64,000 nucleotides of DNA from Gemmatimonadota bacterium (GTDB lineage: Bacteria > Gemmatimonadota > Gemmatimonadetes > Palauibacterales > Palauibacteraceae), in the NCBI GenBank assembly GCA_046757885.1, contig JBHHZD010000002.1, positions 37,494-101,493 of the forward strand. The letters run 5' to 3'. This document shows, piece after piece, positions 20,998-57,037 of this stretch; position 1 is the first letter of the stretch; every line of letters starts with the position of its first letter. Made by a program: the position numbers and the translations under genes. Under the pieces are notes generated by a model. That model made no database searches. It was not told the origin of the DNA and saw only the letters and a program-made list of their open reading frames with translations.

Positions 20998-21012
20998 ATC
21001 ACGCTTGATCTG

Positions 21013-21029
21013 CGCAACGTCTGTGCCGG
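21013..21029 (-). promoter_or_regulatory. Sigma-54-like -24/-12 element (minus strand CGGCACagacgTTGCG)
   Basis: Reverse complement of top 21013-21029. GG-N10-GC spacing, about 20 nt upstream of the ATG at 20997, which heads the long minus-strand operon 20997 to 15000. Confidence 0.4.
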
Positions 21030-21119
21030 CCGGCGACGTCGGGGAGCGCGTCCGGAAGCCGGCGGCCGCGGCGGCCGTACCGCCCCTCGGCCACGGGACC
21101 GGGGCCCGAACGGCACCGG

Positions 21120-31771: not shown

Positions 31772-32003
31772 CCGTCTTCCTTCGCTCGATGCCGCTGTGC
31801 CGGGAATGGCCGGCCTGCCCGTTCGCGCACGGGAGTGGTCGTCGCACCGCACGGACCCTGCCACGTGCGGGAGAGCCGCGCGCCGCGGCTTTTTCGCCCG
31901 CCCCCGGAGGCGATTGCAGAATGTGTGGCGTACGCTCAACATACAGGGGTCCGGACCCGTGGCTCAAGCGCCGAATCGCCCCGCGAGCGCGTACCGGGAG
32001 CCC

Positions 32004-32015
32004 TTGTCATAGAAT
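32004..32015 (+). promoter_or_regulatory. AT-rich TTGTCA / TAGAAT hexamers in a divergent intergenic region (possible sigma-70-type elements)
   Basis: Low-GC patch at 31990-32040 within the intergenic region of about 310 nt (31772-32079) between divergent operons. Confidence 0.2.
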
Positions 32016-32079
32016 AACTTACGCCTTCCAACCCCACGCGCGGCGGGCGCTAGCGCACACCTTGCTCCGATGCGGCGAC

Positions 32080-33735: not shown

Positions 33736-34160
33736 CCGGCGCCAGGCGGGAGAGGGGCGCCACGCCCCCCGGCCGGGAGAGCGTTCGGTTCCGAAGGGGG
33801 CCGGCCATCTCCGTCGTGGTCGTCTCGACCGGAGACGCGACGCGCCTCCGGTCGTGCATCGGGGGACTGCGGCCCCAGTGCGAGGAGCACGACGCCGAGC
33901 TCATCGTCGTGACGACCGCCCCGGGGAGCGAGGTCGAGGCGCTCGTCCGCTCGCATCCGTGGGTCCGGTTCGTCAGCGCGGAGGCGGGAAGGACGCTGGA
34001 GGACCTGAAGTCGGACGGGATGGCGGCCACGACGGGCGACGTCGTCGGCATCCGGACGGACGAAACGGACGTGCCGGACAACTACGTGCTCTGCCTCACC
34101 GGGGCCCCGAGGGCGGCCCGGCGGGCCGACGCGGAAACGCTGCATCAGGAAGGCGGGTGA
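33732..34160 (+). CDS. Short GT2-like N-terminal-domain protein (truncated third paralog of 29931..31771; possible gene remnant)
   Basis: ISVVVVSTGDATRLRSCIGGLRPQCEEHDAELIVVTT aligns with the N-termini of the two tandem GT2-like genes but stops after about 142 aa. GTG at 33732 with GTGA overlap. Confidence 0.35.
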   Translation: MTGARRERGATPPGRESVRFRRGPAISVVVVSTGDATRLRSCIGGLRPQCEEHDAELIVVTTAPGSEVEALVRSHPWVRFVSAEAGRTLEDLKSDGMAATTGDVVGIRTDETDVPDNYVLCLTGAPRAARRADAETLHQEGG

Positions 34161-34180
34161 CGCGTGGAGGCTCGAGACCT

Positions 34181-35662
34181 GTGAGGAGCATACGGCACCT
34201 TGAGAAGGGCGACCGCGTCGTCGTCATCGGGGGCGGGCCGGCCGGGCTCACGGCCGCCTACCTCCTGGCCGAGCGGGGCATCGACGTCACCGTCCTCGAG
34301 GGCGACGACGTCGTGGGCGGCATCTCGCGGACGGCGGAGTACAAAGGGTTCCGGTTCGACATCGGCGGACACCGGTTCTTCACGAAGATCGAGCCCGTGG
34401 AGCGGATGTGGCACGAGGTTCTCGGAGACCAGATGATCCGCGTACCCCGCCTGTCGCGCATCTACTACGATGGAAAGTTCTTCGACTATCCCCTCAAGCC
34501 GCTGAACGCGCTGCGCGGCCTCGGGCCCTGGAACGCGATCCGGATCGGGCTCAGCTACCTGTACGCCCACTTCCGACCGTCCCCGGTCGAGGAGAACTTC
34601 GAGCAGTGGGTGTCGAACCGGTTCGGGAAGCGGCTGTACGAGATCTTCTTCAAGACGTACACGGAAAAGGTGTGGGGGATTCCCTGCACGGAGATTCGCG
34701 CCGAGTGGGCCGCGCAGCGGATCAAGGGCCTGTCGCTGGCCCGTGCAATTCTCTCGGCCGCATCTCTGAACAAGCGCTCGACCACGATCAAGACGCTGAT
34801 CAACGAGTTCCAGTATCCCCGCCTCGGCCCGGGGCAGATGTGGGAGATGTGCCGGGACCGGATCGTGGAGCGGGGCGGACGGGTCCTGATGCGGCACCGC
34901 GTGGTCGGCCTCGAGACCCGGGGCGAGGAGGTCTCGGCGGCCATCGTGCAGACGCCCGACGGTGACAGGCGCTTCGAGGCCGAGCACTTCATCTCGTCGA
35001 TGCCGGTCCGATCGCTCGTCCGGTCGCTGCGGCCGTCGCCCCCGGTGGAGGTGCGGGGAGCGGGCGAGGGACTGAACTACCGCGACTTCTTCGTCGTGAC
35101 CCTCATCGTGGACCAACCCGACCTGTTCCCGGACAACTGGATCTACATTCACAGCCCCGGGGTGAGGGTCGGGCGCATCCAGAACTTCGGGAACTGGAGC
35201 GCGGATCTCGTCCCCGATCCGACGAAGTCCTCCCTCGGGATGGAGTACTTCTGCTTCGAGGGCGACGGGATGTGGACCAGCGCGGATGAAGACCTGATCG
35301 CCCTCGCGACGCGCGAGCTCGGCGAGCTCGGCCTCGCGGATCCCGACCTCGTGTCCGACGGATCCGTCGTCCGGATGCCGAAGGCCTACCCCATCTACGA
35401 CTTCGCATACCGGGCCCATCTGGAGAATGTCCGCGCGCACCTCGATCCGATCCGGAACCTTCACCTCGTGGGCCGGAACGGGCTGCACAAGTACAACAAC
35501 CAGGACCACTCCATGCTCACGGCCATGATGACCGTGTGGAACATGGAGGGCGCCGAGCACGACATCTGGGCCGTGAACACCGACTTCGAGTACCACGAAG
35601 AGCAGAAGCTCGATTCCGGACGGGACGCCGAGGACCCCGTCGCCGTCCGGTCCGCGGTCTGA
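34181..35662 (+). CDS. NAD(P)/FAD-dependent oxidoreductase (amine-oxidase / UDP-galactopyranose-mutase-like Rossmann family)
   Basis: GTG at 34181. VVVIGGGPAGLTAAYLLAERGIDVTVLEGDDVVGG dinucleotide-binding motif. 493 aa. Confidence 0.7.
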   Translation: MRSIRHLEKGDRVVVIGGGPAGLTAAYLLAERGIDVTVLEGDDVVGGISRTAEYKGFRFDIGGHRFFTKIEPVERMWHEVLGDQMIRVPRLSRIYYDGKFFDYPLKPLNALRGLGPWNAIRIGLSYLYAHFRPSPVEENFEQWVSNRFGKRLYEIFFKTYTEKVWGIPCTEIRAEWAAQRIKGLSLARAILSAASLNKRSTTIKTLINEFQYPRLGPGQMWEMCRDRIVERGGRVLMRHRVVGLETRGEEVSAAIVQTPDGDRRFEAEHFISSMPVRSLVRSLRPSPPVEVRGAGEGLNYRDFFVVTLIVDQPDLFPDNWIYIHSPGVRVGRIQNFGNWSADLVPDPTKSSLGMEYFCFEGDGMWTSADEDLIALATRELGELGLADPDLVSDGSVVRMPKAYPIYDFAYRAHLENVRAHLDPIRNLHLVGRNGLHKYNNQDHSMLTAMMTVWNMEGAEHDIWAVNTDFEYHEEQKLDSGRDAEDPVAVRSAV

Positions 35663-35672
35663 GGCTCGACGG

Positions 35673-36851
35673 ATGCGGATCGGAGTCGACGCGACCTGCT
35701 GGGCCAATCGGAGAGGGTACGGCCGGTTCACGCGCGAGCTCCTGCGCGCGTGCGTCGAGCTCGCCCCCGACGATCGGTTCGTCTGCCTCCTCGATCCGGC
35801 GTCGGCCGGGAGCTTCGACCTGGAGGGCGAGAACGTGGAAGTCGTGTCCGTCCACCAGCGGGTGTCGCCGACGGAGGCCGCCGCCGCCGACGGGAACCGG
35901 TCGCCGCGCGACATGCTTCGCCTCGCGTCGGCCGCGGCACGCACGCGGGTGGACGTGTTCTTCTGCCCTTCCGTGTACACGTTCTTTCCTCTTCCGCGCC
36001 GCATGGCCGCCGTGGTGACGATCCACGACACCATCGCGGAGAGGTTTCCGGAGCTCACGCTCCCGTCCCGGCGGGCCCGACTGTTCTGGACGCTGAAGGT
36101 GCGGCTCGCCATTCGGCAGGCGCGGCTCATCCTCACCGTGTCCGAGTACTCGGCGCGGGAGATCGCGCGGCGCCTGCGCGTGCCCGGGTCGCGGATCCGG
36201 GTCGCCGGGGAAGCCCCGGCCCCCGCCTTCCATCCGAGCGAGTCCGCGGAGCGGGTGGCGGCCGAGGCGGCGACCCTCGGCCTGCCGGTCGGCGCCCGCT
36301 GGTTCACCTACGTGGGCGGATTCAACCCGCACAAGAACGTGCAGGACATCGTCCGGGCGCACGCGGAGCTCGTGGCCGAGCATCCGCGGAATCCTCCGCA
36401 CCTCCTCCTCGTGGGAGCGACCCGGGGCGACGTGTTCCACGGAAACCAGGGGGAGATCCGGCGGCTCATCGAGAGCCTCGGCACCGCGCCGTACGTGGTC
36501 TGGACCGGCTTTCTGCCCGACGATCGGCTCCGCCATCTCCATTCCGGAGCGCTGGCGCTCCTGTTGCCGTCCGAGGCGGAGGGGTTCGGCCTCCCTGCCG
36601 TCGAGGCCGCGGCGTGCGGCGCTCCCGTCGTCGCGACGACCGAGAGCCCGCTTCCCGAGATTCTGGCGGGGGGAGGCATCTTCGTGCGGCCTTCGGACGC
36701 GGACGCCCTCAAGACGGCGATGCGGCGGCTTCTCGAGGATCGCGCGCTTCGAGAGGAGCTGGGGAGCGGCGCACGGGCCCGGGCCGGCGCCCTGAGCTGG
36801 GAGCGGGCCGCCGGGCGGGCCATGGCCGCGCTCCGGGAGGCGGCCGCGTGA
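35673..36851 (+). CDS. GT4 family glycosyltransferase
   Basis: MRIGVDATC... C-terminal EGFGLPAVEAAACGAPVVAT. Confidence 0.8.
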   Translation: MRIGVDATCWANRRGYGRFTRELLRACVELAPDDRFVCLLDPASAGSFDLEGENVEVVSVHQRVSPTEAAAADGNRSPRDMLRLASAAARTRVDVFFCPSVYTFFPLPRRMAAVVTIHDTIAERFPELTLPSRRARLFWTLKVRLAIRQARLILTVSEYSAREIARRLRVPGSRIRVAGEAPAPAFHPSESAERVAAEAATLGLPVGARWFTYVGGFNPHKNVQDIVRAHAELVAEHPRNPPHLLLVGATRGDVFHGNQGEIRRLIESLGTAPYVVWTGFLPDDRLRHLHSGALALLLPSEAEGFGLPAVEAAACGAPVVATTESPLPEILAGGGIFVRPSDADALKTAMRRLLEDRALREELGSGARARAGALSWERAAGRAMAALREAAA

Positions 36852-38113
36852 CGAAGCCGCGCCGATTCTGCATGCTCACGACTTTCTACCCGCCCTGCAA
36901 CTTCGGCGGCGACGGGATGGGCGTCCGTCGGCTCGCGCGCGCTCTCGTGCGGGCCGGGCACGAGGTGTCCGTTGTGCACGACGTGAACGCCTATCGTGTC
37001 CTGGGGGGACGGGAGACTCCGTCTCCGGGCATCGGGGAGGACGGCGTGGAGATCCTCCCGCTCGAGAGCGGCCTCGGCTTCCTGTCGCCACTCCTCACGC
37101 AGCAGACGGGCCGGCCGATCGTGCAGAGGCGGCGCCTCCGCGCCATCCTGGACCGGGGATTCGACGTCATCAACTACCACAACGTCTCCCTCGTGGGCGG
37201 GCCGGGCATCCTGTCGCTGGGGGAGGGCGTGAAGATCTACACGGCCCACGAGCACTGGCTCGTGTGTCCCACGCACGTGCTGTGGAGGCACGGCCGCGAG
37301 CCGTGCGATGCCCGCGAATGCCTGCGCTGCGTGCTCCGGCACCGCCGCCCGCCCCAGGCCTGGCGGTACACGGGCTTCCTCCGCCGCCAGCTGGCGCACG
37401 TGGACGCCTTCATCGCGAAGAGCGAGTTCAGTCGCGCCAAGCACCGGGAGTTCGGATTCCCGCGAGACATGGAGGTCATGCCCTACTTCCTGCCGGACCG
37501 GGAGCCCGTGGACGCAGCGCCGGAGGCGGAGGCGCCGCACGACAGACCGTACTTCCTGTTCGTGGGCCGGCTCGAGAAGATCAAGGGTCTGCAGGACGTG
37601 ATCCCCGCCTTCCGGGGCGTTCCCGGGGCCGACCTGCTCGTGGCGGGCGCGGGCGAGCACGGCGAGGCGCTGCGCCGCCAGGCGAGCGACGCGGAGGGCG
37701 TGCGCTTCCTCGGTCGCGTGGACCCGGCGCGCCTCCGGGCCTATTACCGCCACGCCCTGGCCCTCATCGTCCCTTCGGTGTGCTACGAGACGTTCGGCAT
37801 CATCCTCATCGAAGCGCTCCGCGAGGGAACGCCGGTCATCGCGCGCCGGATCGGCCCGTTTCCGGAGATCGTGGCCCGTTGCGGCGAGGCGGGGCGCCTG
37901 TTCGACGACACCGCCGAGCTCGTCCGGGCGCTGCGGTCCGTGCCGACGGAGGGCGCCGAGCGGGAGCGGGTGCGGACGGTCGCACGGCGGGCGTTCGACG
38001 TGAACTGGTCGGAAGGAGCGGTCCTGCCGCAGTATCTGGACATCGTGAGGCGAGCGGGAGGCCGGGCGCGGCCCCGCGCCGTCACGGACCTCAACGTGGA
38101 GCGCATGGCATGA
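36848..38113 (+). CDS. GT4 family glycosyltransferase
   Basis: GTG at 36848 (GTGA overlap); alternative ATG at 36872. CYETFGIILIEALREGTPVIA. Confidence 0.75.
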   Translation: MTKPRRFCMLTTFYPPCNFGGDGMGVRRLARALVRAGHEVSVVHDVNAYRVLGGRETPSPGIGEDGVEILPLESGLGFLSPLLTQQTGRPIVQRRRLRAILDRGFDVINYHNVSLVGGPGILSLGEGVKIYTAHEHWLVCPTHVLWRHGREPCDARECLRCVLRHRRPPQAWRYTGFLRRQLAHVDAFIAKSEFSRAKHREFGFPRDMEVMPYFLPDREPVDAAPEAEAPHDRPYFLFVGRLEKIKGLQDVIPAFRGVPGADLLVAGAGEHGEALRRQASDAEGVRFLGRVDPARLRAYYRHALALIVPSVCYETFGIILIEALREGTPVIARRIGPFPEIVARCGEAGRLFDDTAELVRALRSVPTEGAERERVRTVARRAFDVNWSEGAVLPQYLDIVRRAGGRARPRAVTDLNVERMA

Positions 38114-39087
38114 AGGTGTTCATCACCGGCGGGGCCGGCTTCATCGGCTCCCATCTCGCGGAGCGCCTGCTGACGGACGGTCACGAGGTCATGATCCTCG
38201 ACGATCTGTCGACCGGAGCCATGGACAATCTGGATCCGATCATCGAGCACCCAGGCTTCCGCTACCACATCGGCTCGGTGCTCGACGCACCTCTCGTCGC
38301 GGAGCTCGTGGACCGGTGCGACGTGACCGTGCACCTGGCCGCGGCCGTCGGCGTGCGCCTCATCGTCGAGCGGCCCGTCCACACGATCGAGACGAACGTG
38401 CAGGGAACCGAGGTCGTCCTCCAGGCGGCGGCGCGGAAGAACAAGCTCGCCGTCGTCGCGTCCACGTCCGAGGTCTACGGCAAGGCGTCGAAGATCCCGT
38501 TCTCCGAGGCGGACGACCTCGTGCTCGGGCCGACCGTGAACTCGCGCTGGGCCTACGCGTGCTCCAAGGCCCTGGACGAGTGGCTCGCGCTGGCCTACGC
38601 CCGGCAGAAGGACGTGCCGATCATCATCACCCGACTGTTCAACACCGTCGGACCTCGCCAGACCGGGCGCTACGGGATGGTCGTTCCCACCTTCGTCTCG
38701 CAGGCGCTGGCCGGCGAGCCGATCACCGTGTTCGGGTCCGGGGACCAGTCCCGCTGCTTCTCGCACGTGGCCGACGTCGTCGAGTCGCTCGTGCGGCTCA
38801 TCGGCGAGCCGTCGGCCGTCGGAGAGGTCTTCAACATCGGATCCGACCGGGAGATCTCGATCAACGATCTCGCCGAGCTCGTGCGCGAGGCCGCGGGCTC
38901 GGAGTCGCCGATCGTTCACATCCCGTATTCCGAGGCGTACGCCGAGGGCTTCGAGGACACGCAGCGGCGGGTGCCGGACGTGACGAAGCTGGCGCGAACG
39001 ATCGGCTATCGTCCCGAGACTCCCCTCGAGCGGATCATCGCCGACGTGATCGAGGAGAGGCGAGCCGCGCTGGCGCGGACGGGGTGA
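38110..39087 (+). CDS. NAD-dependent epimerase/dehydratase (UDP-glucuronate decarboxylase / UDP-sugar 4-epimerase-like SDR)
   Basis: ATGA overlap. MKVFITGGAGFIGSHL... YACSKALDE (YxxxK). Confidence 0.8.
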   Translation: MKVFITGGAGFIGSHLAERLLTDGHEVMILDDLSTGAMDNLDPIIEHPGFRYHIGSVLDAPLVAELVDRCDVTVHLAAAVGVRLIVERPVHTIETNVQGTEVVLQAAARKNKLAVVASTSEVYGKASKIPFSEADDLVLGPTVNSRWAYACSKALDEWLALAYARQKDVPIIITRLFNTVGPRQTGRYGMVVPTFVSQALAGEPITVFGSGDQSRCFSHVADVVESLVRLIGEPSAVGEVFNIGSDREISINDLAELVREAAGSESPIVHIPYSEAYAEGFEDTQRRVPDVTKLARTIGYRPETPLERIIADVIEERRAALARTG

Positions 39088-39097
39088 GGCGGACACC

Positions 39098-39841
39098 GTG
39101 CGCGCGATCCTCATGTATCATTCGATCGACTCCTCCGGCTCGCCCATCTCCGTGGACGTGGCCGCTCTGCGGCGCCACGCGGAGTGGCTCGCCGCCGCGC
39201 CCGTACGCGTGACCGGCCTGGCGGACCTGGTGGAGGGCCCGGCCGAGGAGGACGCCATCGCCATCACGTTCGATGACGGTTTCGAGAACTTCCGGAGCGT
39301 CGCGTGGCCGATCCTGCGCGGCCACGGGATCCCGGTCACCCTGTTCATCGTCACGGACCACGTGGGGAGCGACAATCGGTGGGGAGGCCGGCGTCAGCAC
39401 GGGATCCCCACGCTGCCCCTCCTGGGCTGGGACGCGCTCGGCGAACTGGCCGAGGAGGGCGTCCGCCTCGGGTCGCACACCCGCTCGCACCCGCATCTGC
39501 CGGCCCTCCCCCCCGAGGCTCTCCAGGAAGAGCTGGCGGGCTCGGCCGACCGGCTGGCCATGGAGACCGGCCGGCGGCCGGAGGCGTTCGCCTATCCGTA
39601 CGGATCCGTGGACGGTCGGTCGGCGCGGGCCGTGCGCACCCTCTACCGGTACGGATGCACGACGGAGCTGCGCTGCGTCGAGCGATCGGAGTCCGCGGAG
39701 CGGCTCCCGCGCCTCGACATGATCTACTTCCGGTACCCGGGCCGGCTCGAGACCTGGGGCGGGAAGGCGTTCGCTCGCCGGCTGCGGTTTCGCCGCGCGG
39801 CCAGGCGAGTGCGACGCGCCGTGCTCGGAGGCGGAACGTGA
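39098..39841 (+). CDS. Polysaccharide deacetylase (CE4)
   Basis: GTG start. ITFDDGFEN... TLFIVTDH... HTRSHPHL. Confidence 0.7.
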   Translation: MRAILMYHSIDSSGSPISVDVAALRRHAEWLAAAPVRVTGLADLVEGPAEEDAIAITFDDGFENFRSVAWPILRGHGIPVTLFIVTDHVGSDNRWGGRRQHGIPTLPLLGWDALGELAEEGVRLGSHTRSHPHLPALPPEALQEELAGSADRLAMETGRRPEAFAYPYGSVDGRSARAVRTLYRYGCTTELRCVERSESAERLPRLDMIYFRYPGRLETWGGKAFARRLRFRRAARRVRRAVLGGGT

Positions 39842-40953
39842 GCCCGGCGCCCCTGCTGTCCGTCGTGGTACCGAGCCATCAGGGAGCCGACATCCTCCCG
39901 GATACGCTCGCGGCCCTCCGCCGGAGCGATCTGGACGTGCATCGATGGGAACTCATCGTCGTGGACGACGCGAGCACGGACGACACGTCCCTCGTCGCGG
40001 CCCGCTACGCGGACACGGTCCTCCGCCTGCCCGGACGGCCCCACGGCCCGGCCTACGCCCGCAACCGGGGCTTCGAGGTCTCGCGAGGCGATGCCGTCGT
40101 GTTCATCGACGCCGACGTGCGGGTCCACCCGGACACCCTCCGTCGGTTCGCCACCGTCCTCGAACGGGAGCCCGAGATCAGCGCCGTGTTCGGCTCGTAC
40201 GACGCCGAACCCGCGGCGCCCGGGCTCGTATCGCAGTATCGCAACCTGCTCCACCACTACGTTCACCAGCAGAGCGCCGGCGAGGCCGAGACGTTCTGGG
40301 CGGGCTGCGGGGCCATCCGCGCCGATGTCTTCCGAAGCGTCGGCATGTACGACGAGTGGCACTTCCCCGCCCCGCAGATCGAGGACATCGAGCTGGGTCG
40401 GAGACTCCGGCTTCAGGGCCACCGCATCGTCCTGCGGCCGGAGATCCAGGCGACACACCTGAAGAAGTGGTCTCTGCGGAACGTGCTCACGACGGACTTC
40501 GTGAGCCGCGGCGTGCCGTGGACGCGGCTCATCATCCAGGAAGGGCCGTCCGCGGCCGGCAACACGCTGAACGTGCAAAGCGCGCAGAAGTGGTGCACGG
40601 CGCTCGTGGGCCTCGGGGCCATCGGACTCATCGTCTCGGCGCTCGGACGTTCCTGGTGGCCCCTTCTCGCGACCGCCGCCTCGGCGGGAGCCGTCCTCGG
40701 AATCAACTTCGGCTTCTATCAGCTCCTCCGCCGGCAGAAGGGCGCGTGGTTCGCGCTCGCCTCGCTGCCGCTGCATCTCATCTATTACGTGAGCGCCGGC
40801 CTGTCCGCGGTCATCGGCTGGCTCGCCCACACCCTGTTCGGGGCGCCCACGCCGCCCCCGGACGTCGCGGCCTTCTCGGAGGTCGGCATCGAGACCTGGC
40901 CGCCCATCCCGTCGCGGCCGAGACAGAGCATTTGGAACACGCATGAGGGATGA
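39838..40953 (+). CDS. GT2 family glycosyltransferase with C-terminal TM helices
   Basis: GTGA overlap. LSVVVPSHQG... LIVVDDASTDDT... FIDADV, with three or four C-terminal TM helices. Confidence 0.75.
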   Translation: MSPAPLLSVVVPSHQGADILPDTLAALRRSDLDVHRWELIVVDDASTDDTSLVAARYADTVLRLPGRPHGPAYARNRGFEVSRGDAVVFIDADVRVHPDTLRRFATVLEREPEISAVFGSYDAEPAAPGLVSQYRNLLHHYVHQQSAGEAETFWAGCGAIRADVFRSVGMYDEWHFPAPQIEDIELGRRLRLQGHRIVLRPEIQATHLKKWSLRNVLTTDFVSRGVPWTRLIIQEGPSAAGNTLNVQSAQKWCTALVGLGAIGLIVSALGRSWWPLLATAASAGAVLGINFGFYQLLRRQKGAWFALASLPLHLIYYVSAGLSAVIGWLAHTLFGAPTPPPDVAAFSEVGIETWPPIPSRPRQSIWNTHEG

Positions 40954-41332
40954 AGCCATGAACGGCATCGATCGAGAGACGGAGGAGGCCCTGTCGGGGC
41001 AGCTCGCGCTCGCATTCGGCCCTCTTCACAAGCGGGCCCTCGGACTCGCGGTGGGCACGGCGAGCGGTGCGATCGTCTTCCTCCTGACCGTCTTCCACGT
41101 GGTCGTGCGGCCCGACCCGGCGCCGCAGATCGGCCTGTTGCGGGAGTACTTCACGGGCTACACCGTGTCCTGGCCCGGCGCCGTCGTCGGAGGCCTGTGG
41201 GCGTTCACGGTCGGGTTCTTCGTGGGCTGGTTCATCGCCTTCGCGCGGAACCTCGTCATCGCGACCTCGATCTTCATCACCCGAACCCGTCAGGAGCTCG
41301 CCGCCACCCGCGACTTTCTGGACCACATCTGA
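40943..41332 (+). CDS. Small 2-TM membrane protein, tandem paralog A (unknown family)
   Basis: 129 aa; alternative ATG at 40958. Shares the motif LLxEYFTGYTVSWPG with the next ORF, and has two hydrophobic helices. Confidence 0.4.
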   Translation: MRDEAMNGIDRETEEALSGQLALAFGPLHKRALGLAVGTASGAIVFLLTVFHVVVRPDPAPQIGLLREYFTGYTVSWPGAVVGGLWAFTVGFFVGWFIAFARNLVIATSIFITRTRQELAATRDFLDHI

Positions 41333-41352
41333 CCGACCTGGAGGCCGAACCG

Positions 41353-41637
41353 ATGAGAGAGCGAGAAGAGGAGCTCCAGACCGCGATCCGGAGGCTGAAC
41401 GCGCGGGCCTGGGGCATCGCGATGGGATGCCTCCTGGGAGGGGGGCTGTTCGTCGCGACGAACGTGCTCGTGTTGAAGGGCGGGCCGCGGGTCGGGGCGC
41501 ATCTCGGACTCCTGGCCGCCTACTTCCCGGGCTATCGGGTGAGCTTCGTCGGGAGCCTGATCGGCTTCGTCTACCTGTTCGTCATCGGGTACGCGATCGG
41601 CAGGCTCATCGGCACGGTCTACAACCGGCTCGTGTGA
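41353..41637 (+). CDS. Small 2-TM membrane protein, tandem paralog B
   Basis: 94 aa. LLAAYFPGYRVSFVG plus two TM helices. Its stop overlaps the GTG of the UbiA-family gene. Confidence 0.4.
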   Translation: MREREEELQTAIRRLNARAWGIAMGCLLGGGLFVATNVLVLKGGPRVGAHLGLLAAYFPGYRVSFVGSLIGFVYLFVIGYAIGRLIGTVYNRLV

Positions 41638-42515
41638 GCGAAACCGTGGCAGACTGGCTGAGGCTCCTCCGCCCGCGGCAGTGGGTGAAGAACTTCTTCG
41701 TCCTCGCGCCGCTCCTGTTCTCGGGCCGCGCGACCCGGGCGGAGGCCGTCGTTCCGGCCCTTCTCGCGTTCGCCGCGTTCTGTCTCCTGGCGAGCGGCGT
41801 GTACGCCCTCAACGACGTCGCCGATCGGGAGGCGGATCGGCTTCACCCCACGAAGCGTCTGCGGCCCGTCGCCTCCGGGCGCATCTCCCCGCGGGCCGCG
41901 GCCTCGGCCGGCATCCTCCTGCTCCTGATCGCCCTCGGCATCGCCTGGAGCGTGCACGCCACCGTGGCTCTCATCGCGGCCGCCTACGTGGTCCTGAACG
42001 CCGCGTACACGATGAAGCTCAAGGATCTCGTCATCCTGGACGTGTTCTCCATCGCCGCCTTCTTCCTCCTCCGGCTGCTCGCGGGGGCCGCGAGCGTGGA
42101 CGTGCGGCCGTCGATCTGGCTTCTCCTCTGCGGCGGACTCCTGGCCCTCTATCTCGGGTTCGCGAAGCGAAGGCACGAGATCGTCCTGCTCGGCGATGAG
42201 TCGGCGGACCACCGGAGCGTGCTCGTCCACTACAGCCCCGTCTTTCTCGATCAGATGTCCGTGGTCCTGCTGTCGGTCACGATCGTCTCCTACATCATGT
42301 ATTCCATCTCCTCGGAGACCGCGGCCGCCGTGGGTTCCGAGGCGCTCGCCTACAGCACGGTCTTCGTCCTGTACGGCGTCTTCCGGTACCTGTTTCTCGT
42401 CCATCAGCACGACGCGGGCAGCCCCACCGAGACCCTGCTCACGGATCGGGCCCTGATCGCGAACGTGCTCCTGTGGCTCCTCTACTGCGGCTGGGTGCTC
42501 TATCGGCCGTTCTGA
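41634..42515 (+). CDS. UbiA-family prenyltransferase, decaprenyl-phosphate phosphoribosyltransferase (DPPR synthase)-like
   Basis: NDVADREADRLHPTK (the UbiA NDxxDxxxD motif) early in TM2, then about 8 TM helices. 293 aa, the size and layout of Rv3806c-type enzymes. Confidence 0.7.
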   Translation: MSETVADWLRLLRPRQWVKNFFVLAPLLFSGRATRAEAVVPALLAFAAFCLLASGVYALNDVADREADRLHPTKRLRPVASGRISPRAAASAGILLLLIALGIAWSVHATVALIAAAYVVLNAAYTMKLKDLVILDVFSIAAFFLLRLLAGAASVDVRPSIWLLLCGGLLALYLGFAKRRHEIVLLGDESADHRSVLVHYSPVFLDQMSVVLLSVTIVSYIMYSISSETAAAVGSEALAYSTVFVLYGVFRYLFLVHQHDAGSPTETLLTDRALIANVLLWLLYCGWVLYRPF

Positions 42516-42522
42516 CCGCCTC

Positions 42523-43914
42523 GTGACGCGGAACTTCCTCGCCCTCGGATCGGGCGAGGCGGCGGCGCGAATCGTCGCCTTCGCGGCGACCGTGTACATC
42601 GCGCGCGTGCTCGGAAGCGAGGCGTTCGGCATCATCGGGTTCGCCCTGGCCGTCATCCTGTACCTGAACCGGATCGCGGACGCGGGACTGGAGCTCGGGC
42701 TCGGCGTCCAGCTCATCGCGGAAGATCCGGACCGCATCGAGTCGATCGCCCCGTCCCTCCTCACGGCCCGCGTGCTTCTGGCCGCCCTGCTCGCGGCCGG
42801 CCTCGCGGTCCTCGGGCTCGTGGTGTTCCCCGGCGCGGAGGGGAGCGTGCTCGCGCTGTACGGGCTCACCCTGCTCGCCGTGGGCGCGGGGTCCCGATGG
42901 ATCCTGTTCGGGCTCGAGCGGACGCGATTCGTCGCGGGGGCCCGGACGGCCGGCGAGCTCGTCATGGTCGGGCTCGTGTTCTGGCTCGTCCGGACCCCCG
43001 AGGACCTGAAGGCGGTTCCCCTGGCCCAGTTCGCGGGCGACGCGCTGGCGGCGCTCGCCTTCCTGTGGTGGCTCGGCCGGCTCGGGCATCGACTGCGTCC
43101 GCGGCTGGATGCGGCGGCGATCCGTCCGCTCCTCCGGCGGGCGGCGCCCCTCGTGGGGTCCGCGCTCCTGGGCCTGATGATCTACAACTCGGACCTCATC
43201 TTCCTGCGGGCATTCCGCGGGCTGAGAGCGGTCGGACTCTACGCGGCCGCCTACGCGCTCATCAGCTTCCTGAGCAACCTGGGGACCGCCTACAGCATGA
43301 GCCTCCTGCCCACCCTGACGCGGCTCGGCGGCGAGCCCCGGGACCGGCTCGATCTGTACCGGACCGCCACCGTCCACGTCTTCGCGGCCGGTTTCCCGAT
43401 CGCGGTGGGCACCACGGTCCTCGCGCCGGGGATCATCCGCCTCGTGTTCGGGGACGGCTACGCGGGCTCGGCCCTGCCCCTCCAGATCCTCATCTGGTCC
43501 GTGACCCTGGCCCTCCTGCGGGACGTCCCGGTCGTGGCGCTCATGTCCGAGGGTCGGGAGGACAGGGTGCTGCGGCTCACGGCCTGGGCCACGGCCGCGA
43601 ACCTCACCCTGAACGTGGCCGTGATCCCCGCCTTCGGCCTCGTCGGAGCCGCGGCGGCCACCGTGGCCACGGAAGGGACCCGGATGGCCCTGGCGCGCCG
43701 CGACGCGACCCGTCTCGGATTCACGGCGCCGGGGGCGGGCCGCCTGGCGCCTCCGGCGATCGCGGGGCTCGTGATGGGAGGCGCGCTGGTGCTCGGGCCG
43801 GCGGCGCCCGTGTGGCTCGCGGTACCCGCGGGCGTCGTCGTCTACGCGCTGGGCCTCCTGGCCCTGGGGGGTGTGCGTGTCCGGCGGGGCGGGCGCCCGA
43901 GCCTCGAGTTGTGA
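42523..43914 (+). CDS. Wzx-like flippase (polysaccharide biosynthesis protein, MOP superfamily)
   Basis: 463 aa with about 12 TM helices. N-terminus LALGSGEAAARIVAFAATVYIARVLG typical of Wzx/RfbX. Confidence 0.7.
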   Translation: MTRNFLALGSGEAAARIVAFAATVYIARVLGSEAFGIIGFALAVILYLNRIADAGLELGLGVQLIAEDPDRIESIAPSLLTARVLLAALLAAGLAVLGLVVFPGAEGSVLALYGLTLLAVGAGSRWILFGLERTRFVAGARTAGELVMVGLVFWLVRTPEDLKAVPLAQFAGDALAALAFLWWLGRLGHRLRPRLDAAAIRPLLRRAAPLVGSALLGLMIYNSDLIFLRAFRGLRAVGLYAAAYALISFLSNLGTAYSMSLLPTLTRLGGEPRDRLDLYRTATVHVFAAGFPIAVGTTVLAPGIIRLVFGDGYAGSALPLQILIWSVTLALLRDVPVVALMSEGREDRVLRLTAWATAANLTLNVAVIPAFGLVGAAAATVATEGTRMALARRDATRLGFTAPGAGRLAPPAIAGLVMGGALVLGPAAPVWLAVPAGVVVYALGLLALGGVRVRRGGRPSLEL

Positions 43915-44030
43915 GACCGGAGGTGTGGCACCGGCGCCACGCCGCGACGGGCGGGGGCGGGCCGCGGCGCAACGGGGACCGGATGGGCCGCATTCTGGCG
44001 CGGTCCGGCACGGGCCGTCAGATTGTCCGG

Positions 44031-44046
44031 CGGCACCGCACTTGCG
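44031..44046 (+). promoter_or_regulatory. Sigma-54-like -24/-12 element CGGCACcgcacTTGCG
   Basis: GG (44032-33) and GC (44044-45) 12 nt apart, about 52 nt upstream of the VTC-domain gene ATG at 44098. Confidence 0.45.
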
Positions 44047-44097
44047 CAGCCGGTTTCCGTCCGGACGCTGTGACAGGACTCGGGAAAGGTTCCGGCC

Positions 44098-44826
44098 GTG
44101 CCGGCTAGCTACCAGCGGACGTTCAATCGCTTCGAGGTGAAGTATCTCCTGCCCCAGGCGGAGATCCGGAGTCTCCTGTCCGAGCTGGACGGGTACCTGC
44201 TGCCCGACCCGCACGGCGACGGGGTCTGGGGATATCCCGTGCACTCGGTGTACTGGGACTCGGCGGACCTCACGATGTTCTGGGAGAAGATCGAAGGGAT
44301 CAAGTTCCGCCGGAAGCTGCGATTCCGCTCGTACGGCGACGGAGAGCCCTTCGTCGAGATCAAGCAGCGCCTGGATCGGACGATCCAGAAGCGGCGGGCG
44401 CGCCTGCCCCTGGACCGGATGCGATCCGTGTTCGGCTGGGGCCGGGACCCGGAGCCGGCCGCGGACGCGGACATCGACGACCCGATCGTCGCGGAGGCCG
44501 TCCTTCTGCGGCATTCCTACCGGCTGGAGCCCCGGGTCGCGATCCGATACCGGCGACGGGCCTTCTTCGGCGCGTACGAGCCGGATCTCCGGCTCACGTT
44601 CGACACGCGCGTCCAGTACTCCACGACGCGGCTCGAGCCGGCTCCGCCCCTCGAGACGGGAAAGTATCTCGTGGACCCGCGGCTGGCCGTGATGGAGATC
44701 AAGTTCAACGAGCGCGTGCCGCTGTGGCTCCTTCGGCTCGTCGCGAGGCGCGGCCTGTCGCTCGTCCGGCTCTCGAAGTACTGCGGCGCGGTGGATCGGG
44801 AATTCTTCGGATCCGAGCTCACCTGA
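44098..44826 (+). CDS. VTC-domain protein (polyphosphate-polymerase/CYTH-like triphosphate-tunnel domain)
   Basis: N-terminal FNRFEVKYLL and overall about 240 aa, typical of bacterial VTC-domain proteins (PF09359-like). Confidence 0.65.
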   Translation: MPASYQRTFNRFEVKYLLPQAEIRSLLSELDGYLLPDPHGDGVWGYPVHSVYWDSADLTMFWEKIEGIKFRRKLRFRSYGDGEPFVEIKQRLDRTIQKRRARLPLDRMRSVFGWGRDPEPAADADIDDPIVAEAVLLRHSYRLEPRVAIRYRRRAFFGAYEPDLRLTFDTRVQYSTTRLEPAPPLETGKYLVDPRLAVMEIKFNERVPLWLLRLVARRGLSLVRLSKYCGAVDREFFGSELT

Positions 44827-44859
44827 GGCAGCCGGGTAACCCCCAACCGTGAGGGCAAG

Positions 44860-45555
44860 GTGGACGAACTGATTCGCGAGATGATGCAGACCTCTTCGAT
44901 CGGCGGGGGGTTCGAGCTGTGGGAGGCCATCGTGGCCCTGTCGCTCAGCTTCTTTCTCTGCCTCCTCGTCGCCTATTTCTACCGCGAGACCCATCGTGGG
45001 CTTTCGTACTCGGTCGCCTTCGTGCACACGATGATCCTGATGGGCGTGACGGTGTCGATCATCATGCTCATCATCGGGAGCAACATCGCCCGCGCCTTCG
45101 CGCTGGTCGGAGCCCTGTCGATCATCCGCTTCCGGAACGCCGTCAAGGAATCCCGGGACGTCGCCTTCATCTTCCTCACGATGGCCATCGGCATGGCGAC
45201 GGGAACCGGCTTCTATCTGTCCGCGATCGTGTTCACCCTCTTCATGTGCGCCATCATCTACTTCCTCCACCGGTTCGACATCGGGGCCATGAAGACGCGG
45301 GAGATCCTCCTCAAGCTCCACCTGGCGGGGTCGGAGGACTACCACGCGGTGTACAACGACGTGTTCTTCCGCTACCTGCGCGAACAGTCCCTGCTGAGCG
45401 TGGAGACGCTCGGAGCCGACGACCGGACCGAGCTCGTATACTCGATCCAGTTCAAGCGCGGGGCGGACGAGAAGGCCTTCCTCGACGAGGTGCGGGGCGT
45501 GAGCGGGACGAGCAAGGTCGCGCTCCTGCCCGGACAGGAGAACATCAACGTCTGA
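44860..45555 (+). CDS. DUF4956-like membrane protein (usual partner of bacterial VTC-domain proteins)
   Basis: 231 aa. Three or four TM helices, then a C-terminal soluble region (KLHLAGSEDYHAVYNDVF... IQFKRGAD). Confidence 0.6.
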   Translation: MDELIREMMQTSSIGGGFELWEAIVALSLSFFLCLLVAYFYRETHRGLSYSVAFVHTMILMGVTVSIIMLIIGSNIARAFALVGALSIIRFRNAVKESRDVAFIFLTMAIGMATGTGFYLSAIVFTLFMCAIIYFLHRFDIGAMKTREILLKLHLAGSEDYHAVYNDVFFRYLREQSLLSVETLGADDRTELVYSIQFKRGADEKAFLDEVRGVSGTSKVALLPGQENINV

Positions 45556-45571
45556 TCCGGAGGGCCCCGAC

Positions 45572-46690
45572 GTGCTCGGACGGCTGCGCCGATTCGTGAT
45601 GCTGCGGGAGAGGGGGCTCACCCTGTCCCTCGGGGCCGCCCTCGCCGTGGCGGTCGGGATCCTCGCGGTCCCGCCGGCCCGGGCGGCCGTCCTGCGAGCC
45701 GCCGAGCGGGCCGCCGACGCGTGGGAGGCCCGCTGGACCCGCCGGCTCGAGGCGGGCGAGCGGCTCGTGGCACGGGGCGAGTACGAGCGCGCCGCGAGGT
45801 ACCTCGCGGCCCTCGACCGGCGCTTTCCCGCGGTCACGGTCAAGCACGCGAGGGACCGCGAGCGCGAGCGCCTGCTCGCGGCGCTCGGCCGCAGCTACAC
45901 GGAGCTCGGCCGGAAGCGGCTCGCGCTGGACGCCTTCCGTCGTCTCGTCGACTTCGATCCGCGCAACGTGGCGAACCACGCCGCGCTCGCCCGGGCGAGC
46001 CTTCGCTTCGACGAGCCCGAGGCGGCGCGCGACGAGTTCGCCGCGATCCTGCGCGTGGACCCGATGCATTTCGAGGCGCTCACGGGCTACATCGGATACT
46101 TCTTCGATCGCGGGGAGTACGGGCGGGCCGTGGAGGCCTTCCGGACGTATCTGGACGCGCTCGTCCCCACCCGGATCCTGGCCGGGTTCGGAGGGACGGA
46201 GACCGCGGTCTACGTGCCCGCGGACGGCCGGGTCCGGCCCGTGTCGCTGGCCCTGCTCGCTCCCGGCGGACGGGGCCGCCTCTCGCTGGGGACGGACGGC
46301 TTCTCGGTGGAGATCGGGAGCCTCGAGGCGATCGGGCCTCTGCTGGGCGGGCGGCCCGGCAGAACCGACGCGTCCGCGGCCCTGCCCCGGGTGGCGTGGA
46401 ACGCCGTGGGCTTCCGCCCCGTCTCGGACCGGAGGTTCCTCGCCCGGGACGCGGACCCCGTGCTGCGGGGGCCGGAGGTCCGGCTCCCCCACGGGATCGA
46501 GCGTGTGGAGCTCAGGATCCGGGTGCTCAAGCCCGTCCCGCCGCGGCTCTGGGAGTCGGTGCGCGCCAGCTATCGCAACACGCTGGACTTCGAGGGACTC
46601 GCGGACGCGCGGGCCCGCTCCGCCCTCTGTCCGGCCGCGGCGGGAGAGGATCCTCCCTGCTCGAGCGTGAGGTGGCCCGGTGACCTCTAG
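45572..46690 (+). CDS. TPR-repeat protein with N-terminal signal/anchor
   Basis: Repeated helical A/R/L-rich TPR-like units (YERAARYLAALD..., YTELGRKRLALDAFRRLVDFDPRNV...). Confidence 0.5.
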   Translation: MLGRLRRFVMLRERGLTLSLGAALAVAVGILAVPPARAAVLRAAERAADAWEARWTRRLEAGERLVARGEYERAARYLAALDRRFPAVTVKHARDRERERLLAALGRSYTELGRKRLALDAFRRLVDFDPRNVANHAALARASLRFDEPEAARDEFAAILRVDPMHFEALTGYIGYFFDRGEYGRAVEAFRTYLDALVPTRILAGFGGTETAVYVPADGRVRPVSLALLAPGGRGRLSLGTDGFSVEIGSLEAIGPLLGGRPGRTDASAALPRVAWNAVGFRPVSDRRFLARDADPVLRGPEVRLPHGIERVELRIRVLKPVPPRLWESVRASYRNTLDFEGLADARARSALCPAAAGEDPPCSSVRWPGDL

Positions 46691-49600
46691 GACCGGGGCG
46701 CGGCGCCGGCGGCGCGTGCGGCTGCGGGACGTCGTCCTGCTGTCCCTGCCCCTGGACTTCCTCCTCGGGTTGCTCCTCGCGGGATCCGTGCTCGACTACG
46801 TCCGCGCCCGCCAGTTCGACGACTGGTGGTCCCGCGGGTTCAGCGTGCCGGAGCTGTTCGCCGACCGGATCTGGGCCGCCGCCACGCTGCCGCGCGCGCT
46901 CAGCCTCGAGCGCCGGACGGATCCGGAGGGGGCGGACCCCGGCATCGTGCGCCTGCGCGTGACCGGGGAGGGATGGCAGGGCCTCACCGGAGACGCTCTG
47001 GCCCGCTGGAGCGAGTGGACCGACGCCGTCCTCCTGGAGCCGGGAGACGCCCGGGCCGTCGAGCTCCGCAAGAGGGGGGACACGAGCGTGCACTGGCTCA
47101 CGCCGAAGAAGTCCTTCACGCTGAAGACGTCGAGAACGGGTCTGTTCAAGGGCTACCGGCGACTCGCCTTCTCCGTGAAGGACGTCCTGCCGCTGTACGT
47201 GTCGAATCGGCTCGCCGCGGAGTTCGGCCTCCTGGCCCCGAGCACCGGGGTCGCCCCCGTCTTCCTCAACGATCGATTCTACGGGATGTTCCGCTGGGTC
47301 GAGCCCGTGGACGAGTCCTTCCTCCGACGCCACGGCCGGATGCCGGGGAACCTCTGGGAGGGCGAGGTCGCCGAGCGGGGCGAGAACTTCAAGGGGCTCC
47401 CGCGGGGCCTGTTCCACTACCCGTACATCTGGGAGCGGACGGCCATCAACGACCGTCCGGGCGCGGACACGACGGATGCCCTGCGGGGGCTCATCGAGGA
47501 CCTTCAGGGCGGCTCCTTCGCGTCGCACCTCGCGCTCATGGGACGGCTGGATCGCGAGGAGATCGCCCGCTTCGTCGCCTACCTGCTCGCGGTCGGCGAC
47601 CCGTACCACATGGACAACCTGCACAACCAGGTCTGGTACGAGGATCCGTCGACGGGCCTCCTTCACCCGATTCCCTGGGACGTGCGTTTGCTCGACCTCC
47701 GGGATCCGCCGATCTGGGTGAACCATTTCCTGCAGTCCGTCCTCCGCGATCCGTTCGTCGTGGACCGGGCGCTGGAGATTCTGCGCGACGAGCTCGCCGA
47801 CGAAGCCCTCGCGCGGAAGGCGGAGGACCTCACCCGTTCGGCCTGGGACCGGTACCGCTCGCACTTCGCGTACGACAGGGCCCGTCGGCGGATCGTCCCC
47901 GACGTCGGAACCCCGGCGCAGGTCATCGGGCGTCTGCGGACGAATCTGGACGTGCTCCGGACCTGGATGGAGGATTCGCGCGTGGCCGTGGCCGTGGGCG
48001 CCGGGGTCCGGCCCGACGGCACGACCATCGTGGATCTGGAGACCCGGGGATACGCGGGAGCCGATCTCGTCGGGCTCGACGTGGCAGGGGGCGGGAGCAT
48101 CCGGCCCCGCGTCGTCGCGGATCGAAACGGAAACGGGCTGCCGGACGCGGGGGACCGGACCGTGGACGGGGCGTGGACCCGGGCGGCCGACACCCTTCGG
48201 TTCGTGCCGGTGGAGCCGGTGGCGCTCCTCCCGGGCTGGGACACCCGCGAGCGCGGCATCCGCCCGGGGGCCGTGCACTACCGGCTCTTTCTCGTGCCTC
48301 CGCGTCGCTCGGGCCGGCTTTCTGCGCCGGCGGCCGTCGTCCCCCGGCTGCGGAACCGGATCGGCGCCTCTCCGACGCGCATCGAGCGATGGAGCGATGG
48401 GGATCCGCCGACCCCGACCCGCTCCTTCAGCCCGTGGTCCTTCCCCGCGCCGCGGGGCGCCAGCCGGATCTGGCGCGGCGGCGTGCGCGTCGGACACACG
48501 CTGCGGGTGGGTCGGGCCGACACCCTCATCATCGAGGCCGGCACGACCGTGGTGCTGGATCCGGAAGTCTCCCTCGTGGTGCGCGGCCATCTCGAGGTGC
48601 GCGGCGCACCGGATCGGCCCGTCCGCTTCCAGGCCTCCGATGCGCGGCATCCATGGGGAGCCCTCGCGCTCCAGGGACCGGGCGCGGGCGGGAGCGTGAT
48701 CCGCCACGCCCGCTTCTCCGGCGGCGGCGGTGCCACGATCGACCGGATCGAGTACACCGGGATGGTGAACGTGCACGGGGCCGACGACGTGCGGCTCGAG
48801 CACGTCGAGCTCCTCGACAACCTCCGCAGCGACGATGCGCTGCACGTCCTTCACGCCCGCGTCTTCCTCAGCGACTGCCGGTTCCGGAACGCGAACGGGG
48901 ACGCCGTGGATCTGGACTATGCCACGGGACGGATCGAGCGCTGCCGCTTCGAGGGATCCCGGAACGACGCGGTCGACCTGATGACGTCGAGCCCGGCCAT
49001 CATCGCCAGCGTGATGACCGGGTCCGGTGACAAGGGGATCTCGATCGGCGAGCGGAGCCGCCCGCTGCTCGTGGCGGACACGATCACCGGATCGACGCGC
49101 GGCATCGAGGTGAAGGACGGATCGGAGCCGGTCGCGCTCGGCGGACTCGTGACCGGCAACGGAGTCGGTCTCCTCGAGAACGTGAAGAACTGGCGGTACG
49201 GAGCCGGCGGCCGGGCCCGCCTCGTGGGGCTCGCCATCCGGGAGAACGCCGTCGATACGGCGCGGGATCAAGCGTCACGCGTCACGCTGCCCGCAGATTC
49301 CTCGCGGCTCGCGGACGAGGAGACGAGGCGCCTCCTCGCGATCCACGGCGTGGCGGATGACCCCGAGCTCGCGGCCACGGCGGCGGCCGGCCGCGCGGTC
49401 CGCCTCGTCGCGCGGGAGGCCTTCGTCGACGACTTCGCGCCCATCGCCGGGTGGCGGGGAACGGCGGGCGTGCGCCGACTCGTCCGTCGCTCGGACGATC
49501 TCGTCGTCACGTTGGATCGACGGGGCGGGATGGCGGAGCGCGAGGTGGACTGGGACCTCACCGACACCGGTCGCTCGTACTGGATCGTGCTCGAGCTCAC

Positions 49601-52131: not shown

Positions 52132-52203
52132 GCGGCGAAACCTCATCCCCGCGCACGCGGGGGGACGTCGGGTGCTCCGATACCAGCCTACATCAACGTC
52201 GTA

Positions 52204-57017: not shown

Positions 57018-57037
57018 GGGCTCCGCCTCGGTTCCGG

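Follow-up and report, generated by a model that had tools for sequence, protein, structure and literature searches.

What does a UbiA-family gene do at the end of a polysaccharide operon in the Gemmatimonadota, and which sugar would its product bring to the cell surface? The gene lies at 41634-42515 of a 64 kb stretch (hereafter the window) of a Gemmatimonadota metagenome-assembled genome (MAG; contig JBHHZD010000002.1, positions 37,494 to 101,493), with a guanine-cytosine (GC) content of ~71% and 53 genes called on the basis of GC at third codon positions (GC3). Its product belongs, as established by sequence comparison, to the decaprenyl-/polyprenyl-phosphate phosphoribosyl synthase (DPPRS/PPPRS) family, and is probably a polyprenyl-phosphate 5-phosphoribosyltransferase that depends on phosphoribosyl pyrophosphate (PRPP) and supplies lipid-linked ribofuranose for a surface polysaccharide. 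The gene and its immediate neighbours are as follows:

40943-41332, + strand: small protein A with two transmembrane (TM) segments, 124-129 amino acids
41353-41637, + strand: small two-TM protein B, 94 amino acids, with GGAGG 8 nt 5' of its start
41634-42515, + strand: UbiA-superfamily protein of the PPPRS/DPPRS type, 293 amino acids from the GTG at 41634 or 289 from an alternative GTG at 41646
41811-41837, + strand: NDVADREAD, the NDxxDxxxD Mg2+/PRPP motif of the UbiA protein (N60, D61, D64 and D68), read from the translation
42523-43914, + strand: Wzx-like flippase of the multidrug/oligosaccharidyl-lipid/polysaccharide (MOP) superfamily, 463 amino acids

All four open reading frames (ORFs) are present on the + strand with a coding-type GC3 bias and in the arrangement first described for them, with the UbiA gene between the small pair and the Wzx-like gene, and together they form the 3' end of a long + strand operon (32062-43914). 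Their spacing runs from a 4-nt overlap to 21-nt gaps if UbiA starts at 41634, or over gaps of 5-21 nt with the public calls (starts at 40958 and 41646). For small protein A the ATG at 40958 is the likelier start, with a Shine-Dalgarno-like GAGGGA upstream and a public gene call of 124 amino acids. A promoter and terminator scan of 31500-45000 found none, such a scan being uninformative at 71% GC.

The original prediction held that the UbiA protein resembles the synthases that make decaprenyl-phosphate phosphoribose, and asked for a comparison with the quinone and haem enzymes of the superfamily; both the profiles and the structural match bear the prediction out. Two NCBIfam DPPRS models are passed, namely NF008977 (256.3 bits, cut-off 234) and NF008978 (219.8 bits, cut-off 207), whereas the remaining UbiA subfamilies (haem O synthase, UbiA, chlorophyll synthase, geranylgeranylglyceryl phosphate synthase and others) reach 55.8 bits at most, about 200 below. 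NF006088, the DPPRS-related model of UbiA proteins fused to a HAD domain, gives 177.6 bits, under its cut-off of 351, and Pfam assigns the protein to the generic UbiA family alone. The closest solved structure is Rv3806c of Mycobacterium tuberculosis (8j8j; E 2.9e-33, 32.5% identity over 280 columns); residues 4-286 align end to end with residues 13-296 of 8j8j, and a crude hydropathy scan gives seven strong segments, the UbiA fold having nine TM helices. The product of 41646-42515 matches, residue for residue, an NCBI protein that bears the name 'decaprenyl-phosphate phosphoribosyltransferase [Gemmatimonadota bacterium]'.

The active site allows a closer look. Cryo-EM of Rv3806c has identified the residues that contact PRPP, Mg2+ and the 5'-phosphate, with a Phe at position 157 in some mycobacteria, and the phosphoribose contacts are not conserved in UbiA enzymes that transfer prenyl groups (PMC10994848), so that mapping these contacts is a specific test of family membership. 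By alignment, nine of the eleven PRPP contacts are identical to those of Rv3806c (R22, K28, Y70, N73, D77, K87, R90, Y138 and K143), and the other two differ by the conservative changes Q135 to N and Y157 to F. In Rv3806c numbering, the cluster that holds the pyrophosphate through Lys and Arg residues (R22, K87, R90 and K143, together with Y138) is identical throughout, and among the phosphoribose-specific contacts K28 and Y70 are identical while Q135 and Y157 are the changed pair. The NDxxDxxxD motif that had been claimed is indeed there: NDVADREAD at residues 60-68 aligns to N73, D74, D77 and D81 of Rv3806c, residues whose roles have been described (PMC10994848; PMC11127046).

From this family membership and conserved active site we infer the remaining parts of a pathway, namely the dephosphorylation step, the flippase, the glycosyltransferase (GT) of the GT-C class, the sugar delivered and the glycan that accepts it. 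The enzyme, embedded in the membrane, would work at the cytoplasmic face and transfer ribose-5-phosphate from PRPP to polyprenyl phosphate, presumably undecaprenyl phosphate, yielding polyprenyl-P-beta-D-ribofuranose-5-P. A phosphatase would then remove the 5'-phosphate, the lipid-linked ribofuranose would be flipped to the periplasmic face, and a GT-C of the locus, most plausibly one of the pair in the module C described below, would add the pentofuranose to a surface polysaccharide, the acceptor glycan possibly being sulfated. The scheme as a whole would amount to the published pentofuranose pathway of PPPRS, flippase and GT-C (PMC11127046) in a Gemmatimonadota form.

Several characterised systems provide the yardstick. 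A homologue from Citrobacter youngae has been shown biochemically to produce polyprenyl-P-ribofuranose from PRPP (Kelly et al., 2024; PMC11127046), as part of a widespread three-component system in which a PPPRS with a HAD phosphatase domain is joined by a small four-TM flippase and a GT-C, with optional epimerases leading to xylofuranose (a short-chain dehydrogenase/reductase, SDR) or to arabinofuranose (DprE1/DprE2) (PMC11127046). In the C. youngae O1/O2 genes these parts are ORF15 (PPPRS-PRP), ORF14 (the small four-TM flippase), ORF12 (a GT-C of family GT136) and the optional SDR epimerase ORF13 (PMC11127046). Our locus shares with it a PPPRS of the same family inside a polysaccharide locus with GT-Cs (two window proteins exceed the PMT_2 cut-off), and the expected product is likewise polyprenyl-P-ribofuranose, to be used outside the cytoplasm. 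It differs in that the window enzyme lacks the fused HAD phosphoribose-phosphatase domain, as the NF006088 score indicates, and in having no EmrE/ArnE-like flippase; its neighbours are instead the MOP flippase, flavoproteins resembling UDP-galactopyranose mutase (UGM) and flippase-like proteins of the LPG_synthase_TM family.

The likeness to Rv3806c extends over the full length at a similar size, with the NDxxDxxxD motif, the Lys/Arg pyrophosphate cluster and the contacts to ribose and 5'-phosphate kept. The mycobacterial pathway around it differs: DprE1, DprE2, the PAP2 phosphatase Rv3807c, the GtrA-type protein Rv3789 and the Emb/Aft arabinosyltransferases were not found in the window, and the lipid of the window enzyme is presumably undecaprenyl rather than decaprenyl phosphate. 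Pilin arabinosylation in Pseudomonas aeruginosa also starts with an Rv3806c homologue (bioRxiv 10.1101/2020.04.19.049825; PMC11127046), and strains Pa5196/PA7 (PPPRS, DprE1 and DprE2 homologues, and the GT-C TfpW) resemble our locus in pairing a non-actinobacterial Rv3806c homologue with a GT-C. There, however, DprE1/DprE2 give arabinofuranose, and loci of that kind among the homologues we retrieved (L044, L076, L053 and others; labels of this form denote related loci) include none from the Gemmatimonadota. The GtrA/GtrB/GtrC and ArnC/ArnE-F/ArnT systems follow the same logic of a polyprenyl-monophosphate sugar, a flippase and a GT-C, and the window holds two candidates for donor synthases of their GT2 type (20065-20997 and 56100-57041); the donor synthase at issue here differs in being a PRPP-dependent enzyme of the UbiA fold, not a GT2.

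To place the gene among its relatives, all window proteins were searched by tblastn against 84 related loci, and adjacencies were counted in 25 distinct Gemmatimonadota loci. In the Gemmatimonadota, UbiA sits among three recurring blocks: the MOP flippase and two modules, which in the window are:

34181-40953, + strand, extended to 41637 by the small pair: module A, with a UGM-like flavoprotein, two GT4s, an SDR of the nucleoside-diphosphate (NDP)-sugar type, a polysaccharide deacetylase and a GT2 with C-terminal TM helices
52204-58720, - strand: module C, with a GT-C (57038-58720), a GT2 resembling polyprenyl-P-hexose synthases (56100-57041), an LPG_synthase_TM protein (55117-56103), a UGM-like flavoprotein (53703-55124) and a GT-C (52204-53700)

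The order of module A followed by the small pair recurs in L001, L005, L011, L013-L015, L018, L019, L022 and L085-L087. Module C shares a locus with UbiA, mostly abutting UbiA or UbiA-MOP, in L002, L006, L008, L009, L023, L024, L025 and L026; at least one of its genes lies within 10 kb of UbiA in 11 of the 25 Gemmatimonadota loci, and at least three do so in seven. The exact order small-small-UbiA-MOP was seen only in the window's own genome and looks like a junction of modules, not a fixed unit. At the head of module A, a 147-amino-acid soluble protein that resembles the N-terminus of GT2 enzymes and has no family match (33717-34160, + strand) is kept in several relatives, and a radical SAM/SPASM gene at 50965-52146 accompanies the conserved module C cassette.

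We also counted Pfam families among the ORFs nearest to UbiA, considering the top 25 families:

25 Gemmatimonadota loci: GT2 16, methyltransferases 12, Polysacc_synt 12, Amino_oxidase 7, Epimerase 6, Phosphodiest 5, PMT_2 5
37 loci of other phyla: EamA 5, HAD 4, FAD_binding_4 4, adh_short 3, polyprenyl synthase 3

None of the canonical partner families appears in the Gemmatimonadota top 25. A related point weighs against our reading: beside the Gemmatimonadota UbiA there is no HAD, PAP2 or other conserved phosphatase, nor an EamA, SMR or GtrA flippase, which leaves two pathway steps without an assigned gene. DprE1/E2 or the phosphatase could, moreover, be encoded outside the 64-kb window. The neighbourhood counts call for caution as well, as the related loci were mostly retrieved via UbiA, which biases co-location counts, and their ORFs come from our own simple caller. 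For the phosphatase step, five related loci have genes of the alkaline-phosphatase superfamily in the vicinity of UbiA, and the window itself has a single phosphatase-type gene:

49975-50955, + strand: metallophosphoesterase (Pfam Metallophos, E 1.2e-9)

It recurs among the related loci in L005 only, and is a weak candidate for the 5'-phosphatase. As a separate observation, 44098-50955 on the + strand encodes a VTC-domain protein, a DUF4956/MgtC-like membrane protein, a TPR protein, a 1048-amino-acid CotH-kinase/beta-helix protein and this metallophosphoesterase, and the same cassette stands 3' of UbiA in L005.

Could the two small membrane proteins be the partners of the synthase? They had been described as tandem two-TM paralogues sharing LL-x-YF-x-GY-x-VS, and so they are: BLASTP gives 34% identity (E 4e-13), the hidden Markov model (HMM) built on either family picks up its counterpart in every one of 13 loci, and both have two hydrophobic segments and the common motif LL..YF.GY.VS. 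The C-terminus of small protein A, TRDFLDHI, is invariant. Small protein B, whose exact sequence is on record from this MAG as a 'hypothetical protein', is 68-84% identical to its 119 closest database homologues (self-match excluded), of which the named ones are all from the Gemmatimonadota, and it is more conserved than UbiA. AlphaFold models it as a helical hairpin (pLDDT 80), for which Foldseek returned no PDB match with E below 3. The pair has no Pfam match at E up to 0.1 (noise aside), no PHROG family and no similarity to GtrA, EamA or SMR proteins. A holin or phage origin was considered and rejected on the scores of the NCBIfam model NF037947 'holin_4' (39.9 bits for A and 32.3, against a cut-off of 70) and the want of a PHROG match; tblastn of the small proteins in 50,697 phage records gave no match.

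The suggestion that the pair acts like GtrA or Rv3789 with UbiA finds no support in these negative family searches, in the two TM segments or in the distribution. In this survey the pair was found only in Gemmatimonadota loci and was absent from 56 of 56 UbiA loci of other phyla, and it always ends module A, following a GT2 or an SDR. It lies directly upstream of UbiA in five of the 25 Gemmatimonadota loci and anywhere in the locus in nine; in L014 and L015 module A and the pair occupy the strand opposite to UbiA, ~9 kb away, in L085 (retrieved via the small protein) the pair occurs with no UbiA within 10 kb, and in L086 a deacetylase and a formyltransferase stand between the pair and UbiA. 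A pair that stays with module A regardless of UbiA, and is missing outside the phylum, does not look like a dedicated partner of the phosphoribosyltransferase.

Possibly, then, though we would not bet on it, the pair serves as flippase or accessory subunit of an Arn-like branch encoded upstream (compare ArnA-C/ArnD/ArnC/ArnE-ArnF) and has no role with UbiA. Its constancy at the end of module A, even where UbiA is distant (L014, L015) or not present within 10 kb (L085), speaks for this, as does the upstream order of an SDR decarboxylase-like enzyme, a polysaccharide deacetylase, a GT2 and two small membrane proteins; the SDR of module A is partly similar to UDP-4-keto-pentose/UDP-xylose synthase and to ArnA, and the formyltransferase and deacetylase adjoining the pair in L086 would fit. 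Yet the proteins have two TM helices each instead of four and no sequence similarity to ArnE/F, EamA or SMR, the GT2 at 39838-40953 scores just 25.5 bits on the ArnC model, and in five of the 25 loci the pair lies directly 5' of UbiA.

The MOP gene raises a similar question about the flippase that our proposed ribofuranose pathway needs. That a Wzx flippase flanks UbiA is confirmed (directly downstream, Pfam Polysacc_synt 99.4 bits against a cut-off of 28.2, Polysacc_synt_3 60.1, at least nine hydrophobic segments). It might replace the small EamA/SMR-type flippase in the Gemmatimonadota as a dedicated transporter of polyprenyl-P-pentose, an idea to which we give about the same modest credence as to the Arn-like role of the small pair. 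A MOP gene lies directly 3' of UbiA in 10 of the 25 Gemmatimonadota loci (10 of the 23 whose downstream sequence is long enough), and 16 of the 25 have one no more than 10 kb away; Polysacc_synt accounts for 12 of 136 UbiA-neighbour ORFs in the phylum and falls outside the top 25 elsewhere, where EamA is most frequent. In addition, the other two candidates for polyprenyl-P-sugar synthases in the window have a flippase-like gene of their own, adjacent or one gene away, so that three synthase/flippase pairs can be listed:

20065-20997 with 22801-23775
56100-57041 with 55117-56103
41634-42515 with 42523-43914

Against a dedicated role stands the window's gene content. No second MOP flippase is encoded in the window, which contains Wzy_C (7070-8452) and many cytoplasmic GTs as well, so that a general Wzx, which such a locus needs, is the default role. 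MOP flippases usually transport polyprenyl-diphosphate oligosaccharides. Metagenome loci found with the MOP protein as the seed (L088, L089, L092) have no UbiA beside the MOP gene, a weak test of linkage with three informative loci out of five; a PDB sequence search with the MOP flippase and two GT-C candidates gave no matches. We infer that the encoded flippase either moves repeat units for the locus in general or takes on the lipid-pentose opportunistically, and is not a dedicated partner. As an observation apart, 20065-23775 would make a third candidate set for periplasmic glycosylation, with a GT2 that matches the ArnC model over its full length at 179.9 bits, an FAD protein similar to glycerol-3-phosphate oxidases and a TIGR00374 flippase-like protein.

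A bolder combination can be framed in which the Gemmatimonadota use non-canonical partners throughout: a MOP flippase in place of EamA/SMR, the heteromeric A/B pair as a new accessory or translocation component, and a phosphatase that is neither HAD nor PAP2. Along with the GT-C cassette and a pair of UGM-like flavoenzymes, such a polyprenyl-P-ribofuranose pathway would feed a conserved, furanose-rich and possibly sulfated envelope glycan characteristic of the phylum. We regard this combination as unlikely, more so than either single reassignment above.

Is the sugar arabinose? The original prediction envisaged a decaprenyl-phosphoryl-arabinose (DPA) branch of the mycobacterial type, in which an FAD oxidoreductase and an SDR epimerise lipid-linked ribose at the 2' position to arabinofuranose and the small pair serves as a GtrA/Rv3789-like flippase. 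Its parts list is there in name: FAD oxidoreductases, SDRs and a phosphoesterase (the metallophosphoesterase above) do occur in the window, seven of the 25 Gemmatimonadota loci combine UbiA with FAD proteins of the PRK07208 type, and an SDR gene lies just 5' of the FAD gene in L015 and L025. The families, however, are the wrong ones. Among the 53 window genes, Pfam detects no FAD_binding_4 domain (the vanillyl-alcohol-oxidase, VAO, fold), adh_short, PAP2, HAD, GtrA or EamA domain. The FAD proteins at 34181-35662 (+ strand) and 53703-55124 (- strand) are PRK07208-family paralogues of the Rossmann type (Amino_oxidase/NAD_binding_8) whose closest solved relatives are UDP-galactopyranose mutases of the eukaryotic type (34181-35662 matches 4dsg with E 3.4e-18 over residues 12-452, and 53703-55124 matches with E of about 1e-9); the third, at 21180-22808, is of the DAO/glycerol-3-phosphate-oxidase type and not of the VAO fold either. 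The SDRs are extended NDP-sugar types resembling UXS, ArnA-C, LegB and HpnA, and the small pair, besides lacking GtrA, EamA or SMR similarity, is unlinked to UbiA outside the phylum.

As positive controls we took the gene pair directly 3' of the L044 UbiA homologue, validated against the PDB as DprE1 (E 1.9e-76 to M. tuberculosis DprE1) and DprE2 (E 3.5e-34). With these probes, tblastn at E 1e-3 found no match either in the window or among the Gemmatimonadota loci, whereas a true DprE1 directly follows the UbiA homologue in seven loci of other phyla, with DprE2 in four of the seven:

L044 (10858-12974), L076, L045, L053, L082, L038 and L065

These loci come from MAGs of Deferrimicrobiaceae, Verrucomicrobiia, Methylomirabilota, Cytophagaceae, Bacteroidia and Fimbriimonadaceae, and are probably pathways to arabinofuranose donors outside the Actinobacteria. 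In a neighbour-joining tree, the Gemmatimonadota UbiA enzymes form one clade without a DprE-linked member. A DprE1-like role of the window's FAD proteins is rejected on fold, family and the negative probes, and the DPA branch as a whole appears very doubtful. Without DprE1/DprE2 in the window, ribofuranose is likelier than arabinofuranose; over the 64 kb of genome in view, the evidence favours ribofuranose, or the product of an unrecognised epimerase. The two UGM-like flavoproteins suggest furanose-sugar chemistry in the locus, apart from the PRPP route.

Least tenable is that the protein acts as a conventional prenyltransferase in the manner of the enzymes for ubiquinone, menaquinone, haem O or chlorophyll. 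One could cite for it the generic Pfam match and the name '4-hydroxybenzoate polyprenyltransferase' given to homologues by JGI pipelines, but we reject it as having next to no chance given that all such models fall far under their cut-offs, that phosphoribose-specific contacts are kept and that the genomic surroundings are those of glycan synthesis.

The distribution of the family is wider than had been assumed. A DPPRS-like enzyme had been thought unusual outside the Actinobacteria; in fact, a homologue scan with one genome per species returned 172 relatives, the best 80 of which, examined for taxonomy, span more than 12 bacterial lineages, and functional non-actinobacterial systems have been published (PMC11127046; bioRxiv 10.1101/2020.04.19.049825). 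Identity to the window protein among these 80 is:

Gemmatimonadota: 61-77%
Fibrobacteraceae, Acidobacteriota, Latescibacterota, Methylomirabilota, Chloroflexia, Bacteroidota, Myxococcota, Clostridia, Verrucomicrobiia and others: 39-52%

A DPPRS/PPPRS homologue (36% identity, 96% coverage) was also seen on a human-gut phage contig (MT837543.1, 4874-5734), in line with the mention of an example carried by a phage in Kelly et al. (2024; PMC11127046). A literature search on pentose glycans or DPPRS in the Gemmatimonadota found no relevant work. The PPPRS family, the concept of the pentofuranose donor and the NCBI name of the protein are already known; what is new is a phylum in which they have not been discussed, together with the partner genes.

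The remainder of the window confirms that UbiA lies in a glycan locus rich in GT-C-like enzymes, with Wzy_C, many GT2 and GT4 enzymes, sulfotransferases and six polytopic proteins of 469-629 amino acids:

32062-33735: GT-C-like polytopic protein
52204-53700: GT-C-like polytopic protein
57038-58720: GT-C-like polytopic protein
58981-60870: GT-C-like polytopic protein
60816-62594: GT-C-like polytopic protein
62591-64000: GT-C-like polytopic protein, running past the window end, so that 469 amino acids is a minimum

Six GT-Cs had been predicted, and six polytopic proteins are indeed present, but only two pass the Pfam PMT_2 cut-off of 26.1 bits (57038-58720 with 30.7 and 62591-64000 with 44.5). 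Two more show weak PMT_2 similarity, making four of the six; of the remaining two, one is a LIC_10190-family membrane protein and one has no family match. The sulfotransferases are:

1747-2769, + strand: sulfotransferase
16209-17192, - strand: sulfotransferase

Their presence suggests that the glycan may be sulfated, as do genes of a relative: in L001, 14717-19004, right after UbiA-MOP, carries an APS (adenosine 5'-phosphosulfate) kinase, a CysN-like gene and genes related to PAPS (3'-phosphoadenosine 5'-phosphosulfate). Two further observations concern gene structure. At 8958-10976 (+ strand), a 672-amino-acid fusion joins a GFO/IDH/MocA oxidoreductase domain to an NAD-dependent epimerase/dehydratase domain. 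At 25751-26485 (- strand), an ORF resembling S-adenosylmethionine methyltransferases (VVDVGGGHG, high GC3) was dropped by the caller for its overlap with the 3' end of 24941-25834, and one of the two boundaries is probably wrong.

For the enzyme family, the current picture stays as it is. The usual companion genes are not beside the synthase here, and the phosphatase and flippase steps have candidates that can be tested; the survey further brings to notice two small, strongly conserved membrane proteins with which a conserved glycan module ends. For the Gemmatimonadota, a common but poorly studied soil phylum, our reading would extend the PRPP-dependent lipid-linked pentofuranose pathway to a new group of organisms, and it predicts that ribofuranose, or an epimer of it, may be present in a surface glycan of these bacteria.

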